Assembly: GCA_963796455.1 (NCBI GenBank)
Contig: CAWCLO010000001.1
Span: 32,001 to 96,000, forward strand
Origin: Candidatus Sulfomarinibacteraceae bacterium
GTDB lineage: Bacteria > Acidobacteriota > Thermoanaerobaculia > Thermoanaerobaculales > Sulfomarinibacteraceae
Direction: 5' to 3'
Length of the DNA stretch: 64,000 nucleotides
Translations under genes and position numbers: made by a program
In this document: positions 1,500 to 61,303 of the stretch, piece by piece
Layout of the letters: every line of letters starts with the position of its first letter
How positions within the stretch are numbered: the first letter of the stretch is position 1
The notes under the pieces: generated by a model
Told to the model about the DNA's origin: nothing
Database searches by the model: none
Seen by the model: the letters and a program-made list of their open reading frames with translations, nothing else

Positions 1500-1666
1500 T
1501 TCAAGATGTCATCCTGAGCGGAGCCCCGCAGGGGGCGTAGTCGAAGGATCTATGAGACGGACCGCAACGACCTCGAGCCGCAGAACCTGCCCTGAGCGAG
1601 CAGCGCGAGTCGAACGGGTCCTTCGACTGCGCGCCGAAGGCGCTTCGCTCAGGATGACATCTTGAA
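1500..1666 (+). repeat. Palindromic intergenic element with 21-bp perfect terminal inverted repeats (TTCAAGATGTCATCCTGAGCG), copy 1
   Basis: 1500-1520 is the exact reverse complement of 1646-1666; internal hairpins; inverted second copy at 56626-56786. Confidence 0.85.
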
Positions 1667-1683
1667 CGACCGTACCGTTCCCG

Positions 1684-1792
1684 TTGCCGAATGGGTCGGA
1701 CAGTACCCAAGATGGCAGAGGGGCACGGGGGCGGAGGGGCAGAGGACCGCTCGGCATCCTCGCTATCGCTATCGCTATCGGAATCGCTATCG
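1684..1792 (+). repeat. Composite repeat (GTACCCAAGATGGCAGAGGGGC... plus CGCTAT hexamers)
   Basis: Inverted similar copy at about 41577-41652. Confidence 0.7.
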
Positions 1793-4283: not shown

Positions 4284-4849
4284 CACTCTTGTCCAAGACA
4301 GAGTCTCGGATAGCGTTCAGGAACGGACCTGAAGGTGGGCCTTGGCCTAACTTCAGAGTTGTGCCCCGCTGGCTGCATCACCCAGCCCAGGCGGGAAGTA
4401 TCGGACAGCGATCAGGGGCAGCGGCAGCGAACAGTCGCCAGCGCCAGTGTTCAGTCATCAGCGTCAGCGATCAGCGGCCGGGACAGTGCACAGCACTCAT
4501 TTCTTCGGTAATCCGGCCTTGGTGGTGCGGCCGTCTCGGCCGCACGGTGGGTAGGCGAGACGCCGACACCACAGCGGCTGTTCCTTCTGTTGAACGACCC
4601 GGAGGTGATCACGCCGTCACTGCACCTGATTGCTGCACCTGATCTCTGCCTCTGATCGCTGATCCCTGTCGCTGCCCCTGTTCGCTGTTGCCTGTCGCTG
4701 ACGCTGGACACTGTCGCTGCCGCTGCAATTCGGACGCGGACGCGGACACGGGCACGGGCAACCGCGAACCGGAATTGCCAAGAACCAACCCGTAAACCAC
4801 GTGTTTATCAGTGGGGAAACTCCATGACGATCTTTTTTGGACAGCAGTG
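4284..4849 (-). mobile_element. CACT/AGTG TIR element, copy A (non-autonomous, REP-doublet core), inverted relative to copies B and D
   Basis: Ends CACTCTTGTCCAAGACAG and TCTTTTTTGGACAGCAGTG, flanked by AT on both sides inside a CTGGATG array; homologous to 25858-26715, 50605-50982 and 60868-61303. Confidence 0.8.
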
Positions 4850-7977: not shown

Positions 7978-8092
7978 CTGAGGATGAGTATATCCGGGGT
8001 GCCACGTACACACTTCCACAGTTGTCAGACTGCCGCAGATCCATGGCTTCACAGATAGGGGCAACTTGGACGTGGCACCCTGAAACGCGCCT

Positions 8093-8118
8093 TGGTGGTG
8101 CAGGCGTCTCGCCTGCAC
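8093..8118 (+). repeat. Single REP-like hairpin TGGTGGTGCAGGCGTCTCGCCTGCAC
   Basis: Same unit forms the doublets at 4520-4573, 27458-27509, 50759-50813 and 61109-61163; lies just past the kinase stop codon. Confidence 0.75.
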
Positions 8119-8124
8119 AATCGG

Positions 8125-9201
8125 TCAGCGGCGAACCCGGGCGTTGCCGGCCCAGATGCTCCAGATCTGCTCCTCGTCCGCCGGTTGGGCGTAGTCCGTC
8201 AGCAGGGTCGTCACCAGGGCGCCACTCGCCCATCCGAATTGGATCCATTTCTCGGGTTCCCAGCCCTTGAGCATGGCGTAGAGCAAGCCGCCGACGAACC
8301 CGTCGCCACCACCAATGCGATCGAGGACAACGATCTCCCGCGGCTCGACTACGTGCCACTCGTCCCCCACCGCTGCGATGGCGCCCCACATATGGGCATT
8401 GGTGCTGATGACCTCGCGTAGAGTAGTGGCAAAAACCGTTGTCTCGGGGTAGGCCGCCTTCGCCCGGTCGATCATGCCTTTGAAGCTCTCGATCTTCGCG
8501 GCGAGGTCTTTGCCACCGGCTTCCGGACCCTCGATGCCGAGGCAGAGCTGGAAGTCTTCCTCGTTTCCGACCAGTACATCGGACAAGGAGGCGATCTCGT
8601 GGAAAACCTCGTGCAGCTCGTCTTCACGATTGGCCCAGAAGGTGGCGCGGTGGTTGAGATCGAAAGAAATACGGCTGCCGTGCTCTTTGGCGGATCGAGC
8701 CACATCCAGGCAGAAGGCGCTGGTCTCCGGCGACAGGGCACCGACGAGCCCCGACAGGTGCACGGCACGAACACCCTCGCTCCCGAAGATCCGATCGAAA
8801 TCGAAGTCCTTAGCGTTGAGGGTGAGTCCGACCTCTCCCGCGCGGTCGTTGTGGACGCGAGGCCCGCGTGAGCCGTAGCCGGTGTCTGCCATGTTGATCT
8901 GGTGGCGGTATCCCCAGGGCCCTCCCGGGTCGACCTCTCGACCCTCGTAGTCCATGTGGCGAGCCGCCAGGTCATCCTTGATCATGCGCGAGATCGGGCT
9001 GCCTTTGACAAAGGCCGTCAGGACCTTCACGGGCAGGCCGAGATAGGAAGAGACACTCGCCACGTTTGATTCGGCGCTGGTGACCTCCATGACAAAATTC
9101 TTGCTGCAATGGACTCCCTGGCCGTTGGACGGCGTCAGCCGAACACCCATACTTGTGGGCACCAGAAGTGCGTATCTGCTGTCTTCGCGAAAGGTGATCA
9201 T
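8125..9201 (-). CDS. kdgK: PfkB-family sugar-acid kinase (KdgK-like)
   Basis: SFDLNHRATFW, GNEED and DRIGGGDGF motifs; in a hexuronate operon. Confidence 0.75.
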   Translation of the reverse strand: MITFREDSRYALLVPTSMGVRLTPSNGQGVHCSKNFVMEVTSAESNVASVSSYLGLPVKVLTAFVKGSPISRMIKDDLAARHMDYEGREVDPGGPWGYRHQINMADTGYGSRGPRVHNDRAGEVGLTLNAKDFDFDRIFGSEGVRAVHLSGLVGALSPETSAFCLDVARSAKEHGSRISFDLNHRATFWANREDELHEVFHEIASLSDVLVGNEEDFQLCLGIEGPEAGGKDLAAKIESFKGMIDRAKAAYPETTVFATTLREVISTNAHMWGAIAAVGDEWHVVEPREIVVLDRIGGGDGFVGGLLYAMLKGWEPEKWIQFGWASGALVTTLLTDYAQPADEEQIWSIWAGNARVRR

Positions 9202-25766: not shown

Positions 25767-26120
25767 GTGCAGACGCAGCTGGACAACCATAGAGGCACAG
25801 AGAAACGGTGGCCTGCCCACCCGATGCTAGCTAGATACTGGATGCTGGATGCTGGATCACTGCCGTCCAAAACAGGTCGTCACCTGAAGTTTCCCACCTG
25901 ACAACACGTGATTTACGGGTTGGTTTTTGGCATATCCGGTTCGCGGTTGGCCCCTACCCGATCCCGAAGTACAGCGGCAGCGACAGTTGGCAGCGGCAGG
26001 TCCAGCGTCAGCGACAGTTGGCAGCGGCAGTGTCCAGCGTCAGCGACAGGAAACAGCGAACAGGGACAGCGGTCGGTGTTCAGTGTTCAGCGGCAGCGGT
26101 CAGGAGTACAGGCGACGAAG

Positions 26121-26259
26121 TGGCCACCTCCGGGTCGTTCAAAAGAAAGGGGTAGCCGGTGGGCGGCCGATGTCACGGACAGGCAAGGTGCAGGGCATCC
26201 TTGACATCGGCCACCACACCGGCTTGTGGGTATGGGCATGAACGACCCGGAGGTGACCA
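26121..26259 (+). promoter_or_regulatory. Long leader hairpin occluding the SD and start of the four-helix-bundle gene
   Basis: 26121-26141 pairs with 26239-26259 (20/21, includes GGAGGT and the A of ATG); inner stem 26154-26179 pairs with 26198-26224. Confidence 0.7.
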
Positions 26260-26612
26260 TGTCCTCAGCCGCCACGAACACCAACCTCGTTGCCCACTCG
26301 AAAGCCCTCGAAGCAGCGGGCATCGCGATCAAGCTTGTGATGAGGGTTCCGGCTCCTCTGAAGTCCATAGCCGATCAGGTAATCCGGTCGGCAAGTTCAG
26401 TCCCCGCAAACCTGGCGGAAGGTCACGGCCGATTCGGTAGAGACCGGTCGAACCACTGGAGAATCGCCTACGCCTCAGCCAAAGAGGTCGACAGCCACTT
26501 GAAGCTCCTCGTCCACGCTGGGGCGGTCAACCGGAATGGAGCCGGTGAAGCGATGAAGGCCTTCGATCAGGTCCGTGCCACGACCTGGAGGCTGCTGAAC
26601 TCGACAGAGTGA
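26259..26612 (+). CDS. Four helix bundle protein (23S rRNA-IVS / Avd-like family)
   Basis: 117 aa; DQVIRSASSVPANLAEG.GR and IAYASAKEV motifs; GGAGGT RBS at 26249-26254. Confidence 0.88.
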   Translation: MSSAATNTNLVAHSKALEAAGIAIKLVMRVPAPLKSIADQVIRSASSVPANLAEGHGRFGRDRSNHWRIAYASAKEVDSHLKLLVHAGAVNRNGAGEAMKAFDQVRATTWRLLNSTE

Positions 26613-26834
26613 GTGCTGTTGGCTGGCGCTGTCGCCGTCCCGGCCGCTGTTCGCTGCCGCTGAATCCTGTCGCTGTCCCCGACCCCTGTCCGAGACCCTG
26701 TCTTGGACAAGAGTGATGCTGGATGCCGGATGCTGAATCCGCCCACCAACCCACACCGTCGCAATCACAAAGACCCAAAGCCATCACAAACCTGCGTCGT
26801 GAGCTCCTGGAGTCGCGTGAACATCTCCGGTTTT

Positions 26835-27695
26835 GCCCACAGATCACACAGATAGACGCAGATGACAGCCATATTGCAGGGGCACAAGCGACCACTGCGA
26901 TCAACTGGCGTCCACATCTCGAGTTCTTAACGCAAAGACGCGAAGGCGCAAAGGCCACCGGACTACCGGATTCGTTTTGCCAAAATGGTTATGAACACAG
27001 AGGCGCAGAGTCGCGGAGACGCAGAGGGCTTACGACAAGAGCCCTCCGCCCGGCGAGGTCCTGGCCGCCATCCGGCAACCAGGTACCGCTGGGTAAGGAA
27101 ACCACCCCAAAAACCAGCTCTCGTCTCGGTTTCCTTACCCAACGGCCTGCGCGACCGCGCAGGCCTCGCCTCCTTCCTCCCCCTTTCTTCAATCAAGAGA
27201 GGATGTCACCGATGCAAGGCAGAACCGGCATGCCGTAGGCGTGCCGGACGGTGGGAAGCGGGGTGACTCCGAGCGCTGGCGCTCGGAGTCACCCCGCTTC
27301 TCACCGGCGACAGGCGATTCTTTGATCGCCTGTCGGTCTGCCGCCATGCTTGGCAACATTGCACAATCTCGGCAACCGCGCCTTTGCGTCTCTGCGTCTC
27401 TGCGTCTCTGCGACTTTGCGTTCTTTGGGTTCTTCGCGTTCTTCGCGGTTTCAGCATGTGCACGCGGGACGCGTGCACCACCATGGTGGTGCGGCCGTCT
27501 CGGCTGCACTTCTCCTCTGCTCCTCTGCTCCTCTGCGTTTTTCTCTGTGTTCTTCCTCTGTGTCTCTGTGTCTCTGTGGTTTTCTTGGTGGTTCAACTCC
27601 TGCGATGGATCTGCGTCTATCTGCGTGATCTGCGGGCGTTCTTCCTCCGTTGCTGCTCTCGGGTCTCTCTCTGGTGTCTCTGTGCCGCTGTGGTT
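26835..27695. repeat. Nested inverted arms of 8-9 nt tandem repeats with internal perfect hairpins
   Basis: 26835-26863 pairs with 27609-27637 (27/29); 26929-27028 with 27381-27422; hairpins 27086-27145 and 27255-27300; REP doublet 27458-27509. Confidence 0.85.
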
Positions 27696-30756: not shown

Positions 30757-30838
30757 CTCTTGCTTGGTCTTGCCACGATGAGAATTAGTGTATCTACCGG
30801 CTTACAAACCTATTGGAATTCGAAAGGAGGAACCCTGT

Positions 30839-31270
30839 ATGCCGAGTTTCGTTAATGTGGAAAAGTGTGACGGGTGTAAGGCACTCGACAAGACTGCCTG
30901 CCAACACATCTGTCCGAACGACCTCATGGTTCTCGATAAGGAGAGCATGAAGGCGTATAACCGTGAACCCGAAATGTGCTGGGAGTGCTACAACTGCGTC
31001 AAGATCTGCCCGACCCAGGCTGTTGACGTCCGTGGATACGCGGACTTCGTGCCGATGGGCGCGTCGGTCGTGCCGCTCCGCTCCACCGACTCGATCATGT
31101 GGACCGTCAAGTTCCGCAGTGGTCAGGTGAAACGGTTCAAATTCCCCATCCGCACCACGCCTGAAGGCCAGGCGGAACCCACCGGTGGCTGGAACACCGA
31201 GCCGGACCTCGAGGGTCCGGTGCTCTTCACCGAGCCGGATTCCCTCGGCTGCCCAGTGTGGACGAAGTAG
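30839..31270 (+). CDS. aprB: Adenylylsulfate reductase beta subunit
   Basis: CDGCKALDKTACQHICP and CWECYNCVKICP ferredoxin motifs; AAGGAGG RBS. Confidence 0.97.
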   Translation: MPSFVNVEKCDGCKALDKTACQHICPNDLMVLDKESMKAYNREPEMCWECYNCVKICPTQAVDVRGYADFVPMGASVVPLRSTDSIMWTVKFRSGQVKRFKFPIRTTPEGQAEPTGGWNTEPDLEGPVLFTEPDSLGCPVWTK

Positions 31271-31276
31271 GAGGGG

Positions 31277-33157
31277 ATGATGGCAAACTTCGAAACAGTC
31301 AAAGTCGAAACTGATCTTCTGATCCTCGGTGGCGGTATGGCGTCCTGCGGCGCCGCGGTTGAAGCCGCTCACTGGGCCAAGAAAAACAACCTCAAGGTCA
31401 CCATGGTCGACAAGGCCGCGGTGGATCGTTCCGGCGCGGTGGCCATGGGCCTCTCCGCCATCAACCAGTATGTCGGTCTGAAAGACGGCGACAACACCAT
31501 CGAAGACTACGTCAACTACGTGAGTCAGGACCTCATGGGCGTCGCGCGCGACGACCTTGTGGCGTCCATCGCCCGCCACGTTGACGGTTCTGTCCACCTC
31601 TTCGAAAAATGGGGTCTCCCCATTTGGCAGGCTGAGGGTGGCGGTTATGTCCACGAGGGTCGCTGGCAGCTGATGATCAACGGCGAGTCCTATAAGGTCA
31701 TCGTCGCTGAGGCCGCCAAGAACCACCTCGGCACCGACAACATCATCGAGCGCGTGTTCATCGTCGGCCCGATCATGGAAGGCGGAGTGTGCAAGGGCGC
31801 ATACGGCTTCTCGGTCCGCGAGAACAAGTTCTACATCTTCCTCGCGCGCGCCGTGTTTGTCGCCATGGGCGGCGCGGTGCACGTCTTCAAACCGCGTTCC
31901 TCCGGTGAAGGCCTCGGCCGCGCCTGGTATCCGCCGTGGAACTCCGGTTCGTCGACCTATTTCACCCTGAAGGCCGGCGCCGAGATGACCTGCCAGGAAG
32001 TGCGCTTCATCCCGGTCCGCTTCAAAGACGCCTACGGTCCGGTTGGCGCCTGGTTCCTGCTGTTCAAATCCCGCGCGACCAACGCCTTCGGTGGCGAGTA
32101 CATGGTCGAGCGGCGTGACGAGCTTCAGAACTGGAAGCCCTACGGTCTGGTGAAGCCGATCCCGGCAAACCTCCGTAACTACCTCGGCATGCTCGACGTC
32201 ATGGAAGGCAAGGGCCCGATCTACATGCGGACTGACGAGGCCATCCAGAAGATCGCCGACCAGTTTGCCGACGATCCAAAGGCCTACAAAGCCAAGATGA
32301 AAGAGCTCGAGAACGAGGCATGGGAAGACTTCCTCGACATGACCATCTCGCAGGCCATTCTGTGGGCCGCGAGTGATGTCCAGCCCGAACTGAAGTCCTC
32401 CGAAATCGCGGCCGCCGAGCCCTATTTCATCGGCTCGCACTCCGGTGCCTCCGGCGCCTGGGTGAGCGGACCCGAAGACCTTGCACCGCCCGAGTATTTC
32501 TGGGGCTACGAGAACATGTGCACCACCAAGGGACTGTTCGCGGCTGGTGATGCCACCGGCGCCTCGTCGCACAAATTCTCCTCCGGTTCCCACGCCGAGG
32601 GTCGGATCGCCGGTAAAGCCGCGGTTCGCTACCTCGTCAACGAGAACCCGCCGATGCCGACCATCGACGACGCAACGGTGGAGAATCTGAAGGCGGCGAC
32701 CTTGAAGCCCCTCGATGTCTTCGCGGAGCACAAGGACTTCACCTCGCAGACCGACGTCAACCCGAACTACATCCTTCCGAAGATGTTCATGTTCCGGTTG
32801 CAGAAACTCATGGACGAGTACGCCGGCGGCGTCGGCTCCCAGTTCACCACCTCGAAGATGCTCTGCGAGCGTGGTCTCGAACTGCTTGCCATGCTCAAGG
32901 AAGATTCCCAGTACATCGGTGCTGAGGATCTCCACGAGCTGATGCGTGCCTGGGAAAACGTGCATCGCATGTACCAGGCTGAAGCGCATGTCCGCACGAT
33001 CCTGTTCCGCGAGGAAACCCGTTGGCCGGGCTACTATTTCCGCGCCGACTTCCCCAAGCTGGACAACGACAACTGGCTCTGCTTCGTCAACTGCATTATG
33101 GATCCGGAAACGGAAGAGTGGGAGATGCTCAAACGAGACATTCTCCCCATGAGCTGA
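31277..33157 (+). CDS. aprA: Adenylylsulfate reductase alpha subunit
   Basis: DKAAVDRSGAVAMGLSAIN, WQLMINGESYK, RFKDAYGPVGAWFL, HKFSSGSHAEGR and REETRWPGYY motifs. Confidence 0.97.
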   Translation: MMANFETVKVETDLLILGGGMASCGAAVEAAHWAKKNNLKVTMVDKAAVDRSGAVAMGLSAINQYVGLKDGDNTIEDYVNYVSQDLMGVARDDLVASIARHVDGSVHLFEKWGLPIWQAEGGGYVHEGRWQLMINGESYKVIVAEAAKNHLGTDNIIERVFIVGPIMEGGVCKGAYGFSVRENKFYIFLARAVFVAMGGAVHVFKPRSSGEGLGRAWYPPWNSGSSTYFTLKAGAEMTCQEVRFIPVRFKDAYGPVGAWFLLFKSRATNAFGGEYMVERRDELQNWKPYGLVKPIPANLRNYLGMLDVMEGKGPIYMRTDEAIQKIADQFADDPKAYKAKMKELENEAWEDFLDMTISQAILWAASDVQPELKSSEIAAAEPYFIGSHSGASGAWVSGPEDLAPPEYFWGYENMCTTKGLFAAGDATGASSHKFSSGSHAEGRIAGKAAVRYLVNENPPMPTIDDATVENLKAATLKPLDVFAEHKDFTSQTDVNPNYILPKMFMFRLQKLMDEYAGGVGSQFTTSKMLCERGLELLAMLKEDSQYIGAEDLHELMRAWENVHRMYQAEAHVRTILFREETRWPGYYFRADFPKLDNDNWLCFVNCIMDPETEEWEMLKRDILPMS

Positions 33158-50604: not shown

Positions 50605-50982
50605 TACTGTTGTCCACGAAAGTGCCTCGGACAAGGTTCAGGGGCAGCGGCAGCGACAGGGAGCAGCGATCTGTATTCGGCGTCAGCGTTCAGTCATCAA
50701 AGTCAGGGAAAAGATGCTGGGACAGCGAATAGCACTCACTTCTTCGGGGCTCCGGCCTTTGTGGTGCGGCCGTCTCGGCCGCACGGTGTGCAGGCGAGAC
50801 GCCTGCACCACAACGGTTGTTCCTTCTGTTGAACGACCCGGAGGTGGCCACTTCGTCGCCTGGACTCCTGACCGCTGCCGCCGAACACTGATCGCAGTTT
50901 CCTGTCGCTGCTTCCTGTCGCTGTCGCTGGACACTGTCGCTGCCTCTGCAATACGGGCACGGACGCGGGCAACGGCGAACCG
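50605..50982 (-). mobile_element. CACT/AGTG TIR element, copy C (degenerate, truncated)
   Basis: Decayed end TACTGTTGTCCACGAAAG; REP doublet at 50759-50813; GTTGAACGACCCGGAGGTG core; homology stops at GCGAACCG before the bcp stop. Confidence 0.7.
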
Positions 50983-56542: not shown

Positions 56543-56625
56543 TTCCAGCCTTTGGGTGGGGGACCTGATCCCTGCACACGAGCGGTCTCCCCTTCCCACT
56601 TTCGTCAACGGGAAAGGAACGGTCC

Positions 56626-56786
56626 TTCAAGATGTCATCCTGAGCGAGGCCGTCCGACGGCCGAGTCGAAGGACCCGTTCGACTCGCGTCGCTCGCTCAG
56701 GGCAGGTTCTGCGGCCTTGGGTTTCTTCCGCGTGCGCCATAGATCCTTCGACTACGCCCTTGGAGGGCTCCGCTCAGGATGACATC
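56626..56786 (-). repeat. GATGTCATCCTGAGCG palindromic element, copy 2 (inverted)
   Basis: Reverse-complement homolog of 1500-1666, including internal segments. Confidence 0.85.
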
Positions 56787-60867: not shown

Positions 60868-61303
60868 CACTGCTGTCCAAAACAGATCGTCACCTGAAGT
60901 TAGGCAACTGAAACACGTGGTTTACGGGTTGGTTTTTGGCATATCCGGTTCGCGGTTGGCCCGTACCCGATTCCGATCCCGATCCCGAATTGCAGCGGCG
61001 GCGACAGTGTCTAGCGACCGGGTTCAGCGATCGGTGTTCAGCGGCAGCGATCAGGAGTCCTGGCGACGAAGTGGCCTCCTCCGGGTGGTTCAACAGAAGG
61101 AACAGCCGTTGTGGTGTAGGCGTCTCGCCTGCACACCGTGCGGCCGAGACGGCCGCACCACAAAGGCCGGAGCCCGAAGAAGTGAATGCTGTTCGCTGTC
61201 CCGGCCGCTGATCACTGACGCTGATGACTGATTGCTGCCGCTGACTCCTGATCTCTGTCGCTGTCCCTGTTCGTTATCCGAGAACCTGTCTTGGACAAGA
61301 GTG
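60868..61303 (+). mobile_element. CACT/AGTG TIR element, copy D (non-autonomous, REP-doublet core)
   Basis: Ends CACTGCTGTCCAAAACAG and CTGTCTTGGACAAGAGTG, AT on both sides, inside a CTGGATG array. Confidence 0.82.

Follow-up and report, generated by a model that had tools for sequence, protein, structure and literature searches.

The element studied here is a mobile insertion cassette (MIC), likely moved in trans, and not an rRNA intervening sequence (IVS). It extends over 858 bp from position 25858 (CACT...) to 26715 (...AGTG) of the window, by which we mean the whole 64,000-nt stretch that was analysed (G000:C1:32001-96000, where G000 is the source genome, with an assembly 90.5% complete), and occupies the spacer between the convergent genes glpD and glpK. 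By mechanism this is a known type of element; its passenger is unusual and selected. We consider it probable that a cognate IS4 transposase copies this transposase-less, IS4-ended cassette in trans and that the protein of its core is dispensable for the jump.

Inverted repeats of 18 bp form the ends of the element, and a perfect 9-bp target duplication flanks it, an identical 9-mer standing on the left at 25849-25857, within a GGATGCT heptamer array, and on the right at 26716-26724. This duplication, identified from the sequence and a family-wide test, had been overlooked in the earlier reading made from the sequence only. The left IS4-type terminal repeat (25858-25875, plus strand) corresponds, in autonomous relatives, to the end downstream of the transposase gene and the right one (26698-26715, minus strand) to the end upstream of it. 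Between them follow, all on the plus strand, a left-end module common to most copies that closes with a short hexamer array, variable in length (25876-25970), a 5' arm of shuffled 6-7-mer CAGCGR repeats (25971-26105, with 10 CAGCGR within 25971-26100), a conserved covarying hairpin (26120-26261), a four-helix-bundle gene (26259-26612) and a 3' arm whose YCGCTG repeats are complementary to those of the 5' arm (26613-26697, with four YCGCTG within 26615-26690).

The element encodes no transposase; the passenger gene, its sole ORF, stands in that place. The gene is intact and encodes a 117-aa product of pI 10.3 containing QVIRSASSVPANLAEG, with an alternative in-frame ATG at 26238 that would give a product of 124 aa. 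The 117-aa ORF scores 51.6 bits against PF05635 (cut-off 33.8) and 52.7 bits against TIGR02436 (cut-off 24), carries the QxxRSxxSxxxNxxEG motif of PF05635/TIGR02436 and weakly matches Xcc0516 (PDB 2GSC, E 0.003). The sequence-only reading had described this ORF, its signature and the two arms inside the terminal repeats, all of which are present at the coordinates above; the inner hairpin, which is the conserved covarying structure, it had not singled out.

A multi-copy family in the genome and the genus

A blastn search of G000 with the element found 235 merged loci, a few elements being split in two, which together make up about 2% of the genome. They comprise 65 loci with a near-full gene, 69 gene-less loci with a REP-like cargo, 50 with a partial gene and 51 others. 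Among the 70 PF05635 matches in G000, four are unrelated paralogs. Both arms are present in 63 of the 65 near-full copies; 34 retain both terminal repeats, 25 one and six none, that is, at least one in 59/65. The proposed free-standing mobile unit is accordingly not a one-off. None of the 235 loci overlaps rRNA (rRNA motifs at C1:768636, C10:145108 and C10:143000) and the assembly has no RVT_1 match, which bears out the earlier placement of the element away from any rRNA or DGR. The copies are intergenic and enriched between convergent genes (30/65 against 384/1627 spacers, from crude ORF calls).

Multiple copies of the family occur in 19 of 24 genus relatives, with copy numbers across the genus ranging from 0 to 70; it is also present in 2/16 genomes of another family. 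It is abundant in four independent sequencing runs, and no relatives of the element were found among viral contigs. The orthologous glpD-glpK spacer of G010 measures 342 nt and lacks the element, the two sequences being too distant to define an exact empty site. No exact empty site was seen in the runs, whose contigs are short and whose joints near 25857 derive from other repeat loci.

Three gene-less copies with the REP-like cargo lie in the window. Two of them, at 4284-4849 (minus strand, C1:36284) and 60868-61303 (plus strand, C1:92868), have both ends and an exact 9-bp duplication; the third, at about 50650-50960 (minus strand, C1:82824), has eroded ends and approximate limits. The REP-like hairpin carried as cargo by the gene-less lineage occurs in the window at 4514-4557, 8087-8130, 27478-27521, 50753-50796 and 61103-61146. 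Six Y1_Tnp matches in the genome could include the transposase of these hairpins. Many internal deletions in the family start at one point of the upper stem (window 26177-26185, core positions 56-60) and rejoin within the gene at short microhomologies; one of these junctions recurs in at least seven copies and three public runs.

Other repeats were observed alongside this family. Window positions 26830-27640 hold another non-coding repeat family, about 700 nt long, with 9-mer arrays and hairpins and many genome copies at 88-94% identity. The PDDEXK_3 family, which has 9-mer arrays as flanks, gives four matches in the genome. Window positions 1577-1691 and 56601-56786 belong to a dispersed palindrome family containing GTCATCCTGAGCG. 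Elsewhere in G000 an IS occurs in three copies at 92-98% identity (C6:37096-38933, C7:279901-281563 and C7:285081-286913), with a protein that we take to be IS91-like, and a 7.2-kb duplication of 96% identity at a contig end (C10:770619-777833 and C2:1-7218) is possibly a strain haplotype or an assembly overlap. Two genes at window 30788-33157 presumably encode the adenylylsulfate reductase subunits, resembling aprB and aprA.

Ends, target sites and candidate transposases

We tested duplication lengths from 2 to 16 on 63 end pairs of G000, a set from which the focal copy is absent, and 9 bp was singled out; it replaced our first reading of a 2-bp AT duplication. The 9-bp duplication is exact in 19/63 pairs and has at most one mismatch in 34/63, compared to a mean of 1.6 and a maximum of 6 exact duplications in re-paired controls, and 29/63 pairs have two or more mismatches. 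The signal is significant in each target class, including non-heptamer sites (9/23 vs 0.6 expected). In the relative G006, 13 of 20 elements chosen for having both ends show an exact 9-bp duplication. We found AT-N5-AT flanks at 154/286 ends (genome background 0.24%) and heptamer arrays touching an element end in 101/242 cases. Insertion thus favours AT-N5-AT sites in heptamer arrays; the transposase may be the source of this preference, or insertions there may simply be tolerated.

Searching genome contigs with the end pattern revealed ORFs of 400-430 aa inside the same ends, with exact 9-bp duplications, in several phyla (L079, L080 and L112 among the matches listed). The two that were tested, L080 and L112, are IS4 transposases (NF033592 above cut-off). 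Within the genus a single autonomous element with such ends was found, in G017 (L162), itself between heptamer arrays, so that an IS4 transposase of the right kind is present in 1/25 genus genomes only. No matching IS4 transposase was found in G000 (90.5% complete) nor in 23/24 other genus genomes, including G006, though the copies of G006 are 97-99% identical and therefore young. As G000 has no such transposase, we infer mobilisation in trans by a partner missing from the assembly. The ends, size and duplication of the element fit the subgroup IS4Sa, for which Table 1 of PMC2266710 gives a target duplication of 8-10 bp; the fit concerns size, duplication length and the end signature (CA, with T at position 9) only. 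Candidate partners whose ends do not match were set aside, namely IS1380 (L035), despite a loosely similar end, and IS5/IS1182-like (L036), ISNCY (L037) and IS256-type hits.

These results make IS4-mediated mobility of the cassette the likely account. A cognate IS4 transposase, absent from the assembly, would move it in trans by DDE transposition. The IVS-like mobility proposed in the sequence-only reading gives way here, the ends and the 9-bp duplication being those of IS4-family transposition. Counter-evidence to the IS4 account is the rarity of such a transposase in the genus, with none found in G000 or in G006 despite its young copies, the lack of an exact empty site, and the fact that just 34/65 gene-bearing loci keep both ends; the lost ends and the mismatched duplications therefore require erosion or later recombination.

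The same core of hairpin and gene is also found in different ends, with 8-bp duplications, in G008, G016, G014 and G017 and at many metagenome loci. At these ISL3-ended loci (23 examined, 18 giving pairs) we found five exact 8-bp duplications and four with one mismatch, and G008 carries an ISL3 transposase with a matching end. Since the core lies inside ISL3-type ends in relatives, it has changed vehicles. A set of 114 gene rows comprises 54 with ISL3 ends, 24 with IS4 ends (eight of which are G000 rows labelled by family and not by detection), 24 with neither and 12 with insufficient flank. On a quick ML tree of the 114 genes there are two changes between IS4 and ISL3 ends, and 23 of the 24 IS4 rows sit among ISL3 rows, on a tree whose root is not inferred and which recombination blurs. 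For these two reasons we claim no direction: the core swapped between IS4 and ISL3 ends. At least two IS families may have captured a pre-existing arm-bounded PF05635 cassette, the captured core presumably consisting of the repeat arms, the hairpin that buries the ribosome-binding site and the four-helix-bundle gene.

Structure of the core and selection on its gene

The arms form a duplex at -99.5 kcal/mol, whereas 200 shuffled versions of the 3' arm give -79.0 +/- 6.1, and the fold of 25840-26740 has a z of -6.8 (20 shuffles). Arms of other copies are as good a partner as the 3' arm of the copy itself (own arm at mean rank 0.46, best in 0/54), and the sense strand pairs better in 31/54 copies. 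The arms are generic repeats. No covariation of the long arms within copies was found among 54 copies. Of the giant hairpin that had been proposed, the complementary arms and their better pairing than shuffles are upheld and within-copy covariation is lacking; the giant hairpin can therefore form, and selection for it is not shown.

The inner hairpin gives a different picture. Over 56 sequences 93.9% of its cells are paired and 28 of 56 pairs show compensatory change, with 122 compensatory cells compared to 20 in shuffled and 18-29 in slid controls, the structure being derived from the consensus, which favours the covariation score. It measures 142 nt, and its basal stem (26120-26141 with 26239-26261) buries the ribosome-binding site GGAGG (26249-26253) and the start codon ATG. 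Counts of G-U vs A-C are 30 vs 16 in the basal stem and 6 vs 27 in the upper stem, on mostly Watson-Crick pairing, and give no clear strand preference. With stems that lean in opposite directions and are mostly Watson-Crick, a DNA hairpin is as possible as an RNA one. The hairpin has no Rfam match at gathering score. A scan found no sigma-70-like promoter, although the hairpin holds two inverted TTGACA. Expression may be low, because the hairpin hides the start.

Purifying selection acts on the gene. The 63 aligned gene copies have a pairwise identity of 90%, 59 of them are intact with few frameshifts, and dN/dS over the 63 is 0.16. The ratio pN/pS is 0.70 for singletons and 0.13-0.21 for shared alleles (Fisher p 4e-9), and private changes are near neutral (70/102 nonsynonymous, expected share 0.76, p 0.10). 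Selection is thus seen on shared changes and not on private ones. Across 16 genomes the gene is conserved (uncorrected pN 0.16 vs pS 0.56). This pattern is expected if propagating lineages are selected and resident copies drift; it can also arise in a gene pool that undergoes conversion under weak host-level selection. The copies are fine patchworks with tracts visible by eye: among those of G000, linkage is lost over about 30-60 nt (r2 drops from 0.16 to 0.04 within 60 nt), and all four gametes occur in about 80% of distant site pairs, with four-gamete conflicts also in G006.

Is the protein needed for spread? Sixty-six gene-less copies share one common junction and are spread as widely as the gene-bearing ones, with both ends kept in 27 of the 69 gene-less copies. 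The protein is therefore not needed for transposition, contrary to the earlier suggestion that it assists the spread of the element. A basic Avd-like protein acting on its own RNA or DNA would produce a cis-type selection pattern. We offer as a tentative possibility that the protein favours the survival of its own core by binding the structured nucleic acid of that core. Three lines of evidence stand against a role in cis: the gene-less spread, other gene-less elements with IS4 ends, 319-388 bp long, whose hairpin cargo differs and which also lie in heptamer arrays (L062-L064, L073, L106), and a K-to-I change in 7/16 intact G006 copies.

Alternative explanations and related elements

The four other PF05635 paralogs in G000 all have their own inverted 6-8-mer arrays. 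Beyond this genome we took the 30 top-scoring PF05635 loci of the phylum, 28 of which have full flanks and two of which are near-identical. Tandem arrays on both sides were found at 23/28 of these loci, compared to 11/400 control ORFs and 1/57 shifted windows. The arrays share words in inverted orientation at 18/28 loci (5/400 control ORFs, 2/57 shifted windows) and in direct orientation at 1/28 (3/400 control ORFs). The idea that four-helix-bundle paralogs are surrounded by short repeats thus holds well outside the element. The targeted heptamer is the arm word of another PF05635 subfamily in G006 and G015 (L333, L322; variant L323; 3/28 loci). We also observed that the PF05635 genes L337, L328 and L329 have hexamer arms resembling the hexamer array of the left-end module, which hints at a third nested layer.

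These arrays raise the possibility, which we regard as doubtful, that the core is itself selfish: the protein would drive gene conversion or copying from one arm-bounded site to another, with the IS ends as a later and optional addition. The mirror arrays around PF05635 loci phylum-wide, the subfamilies each with its own word, the heptamer target that is the arm word of another subfamily, the absence of an IS end in 24/102 rows with adequate flanks or ends and the linkage decay and four-gamete conflicts described above all speak for it. High copy numbers, however, go with family-specific duplications and IS ends. Erosion, or a failure of the end patterns to detect them, may account for the rows that lack ends, and ordinary ectopic recombination can yield patchwork copies. 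We know of no catalytic activity in the PF05635 family. In its widest and equally speculative form, arm-bounded four-helix-bundle cassettes would be a widespread undescribed selfish class, in which each protein subfamily recognises its own word and hairpin and promotes copying or conversion between arm arrays; the present lineage would have hijacked two unrelated IS families and would live as a parasite on a sister subfamily's orphan arms, while those rRNA intervening sequences that carry this gene would be stranded members. Less probably, the protein would benefit its host in trans, perhaps by serving as an RNA-binding or defence accessory, and weak host selection together with gene conversion would keep the pool functional. 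The 59/63 intact copies and the conservation across 16 genomes are consistent with such a benefit, as are the PF05635 genes reported inside cas loci in PMC3936711; the near-neutral private changes, the buried start site without a sigma-70-like promoter found and a copy number of 0 to 70 across the genus argue against it.

A similarly improbable explanation is IVS-like RNA processing, in which read-through transcripts would lose the element, folded out by its arms and removed by RNase III, so that insertions do no harm. The arms do pair better than shuffles, and the Coxiella IVS, with a gene of the same family and heptamer repeats upstream, is cut out by RNase III as reported in PMC4990558. Yet the arms lack within-copy covariation and strand preference, the copies are intergenic, enriched between convergent genes and in no case within rRNA, and excision without ligation accounts for no mobility. 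Retro-mobility, with a protein that like DGR Avd recruits a reverse transcriptase (RT) in trans to the element RNA, is largely refuted and very unlikely. It draws on the homology of the family to Avd (as given in PMC10053308), on the binding of DGR RNA by Avd as a basic pentamer (as described in 10.1101/2023.10.23.563531) and on the conserved hairpin. Against it, G000 has no RT (no RVT_1 match in the assembly), an RT is present in 11/25 genus genomes with 12/12 tested being group II intron RTs, the four-helix-bundle motif is absent beside the genus RTs in the 15 loci examined, and the duplications have a fixed IS-type length. Singletons show no adenine bias (per site A 0.30, C 0.30, G 0.26, T 0.35), and DGR-type mutagenesis is rejected on the same ground. 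That the patchwork or the copy number is an artefact of assembly or polishing is most improbable. The read type behind the assembly is unknown and the copies are about 90% alike, but their flanks are unique with copy-specific duplications, their variation is mostly synonymous with few frameshifts, and the family recurs in the genus relatives and the four independent runs. The IS4-ended cassette is the preferred reading.

MIC231 is a MIC of the IS231 subgroup of IS4. Like MICs and MITEs, the element combines the lack of a transposase with IS ends, a target duplication, passenger DNA and, probably, activation in trans by a cognate transposase, as these are described in PMC3129680 and PMC2266710. 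Compared to MICs, its ends fit IS4Sa rather than IS231, about 65 gene-bearing copies occur per genome, the passenger, an arm-hairpin-gene unit, is structured in its own right and rides ISL3 ends in relatives, and the target is a heptamer array. With autonomous IS4 elements (NF033592 type, IS4Sa-like ends) it shares the terminal repeats and the 9-bp duplication; it differs in having the cassette in place of the transposase gene, with the cassette's gene reading opposite to the transposase direction. The ORF-bearing 23S rRNA IVS of Leptospira and Coxiella (S23p) resemble it in the protein family, the gene within a predicted stem, the nearby short repeats and the poor access to the start site, going by PMC4990558. 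Unlike them, the element lies outside rRNA, has IS ends and target duplications, and holds a gene under purifying selection whereas the IVS gene is decaying; it is bordered by complementary sequences as an IVS is, and it does not lie in a 16S/23S rRNA helix. The likeness to DGR Avd consists of a homologous family (PMC10053308) and a basic protein beside a structured non-coding region, and the element differs in having no RT, template repeat, variable repeat or adenine-specific change.

We found no description of the element or of arm-bounded PF05635 cassettes in the literature searched, most subscription journals and ISfinder lying outside that search. Where ORF-bearing rRNA IVS come from and what the PF05635 protein does have been open questions for 30 years, the two standing guesses, according to PMC4990558, being a transposon remnant and a mobility factor. 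Here the 858-bp unit is defined and its ends are known, the genus supplies a candidate transposase, and gene-less copies serve as natural controls; together with dozens of alleles that show selection, this makes both guesses directly testable. The abundant 6-8-mer intergenic arrays of these genomes are tied to the PF05635 gene family, and the spread of a conserved gene by an IS-ended cassette is likely a route for genes otherwise known from rRNA intervening sequences.
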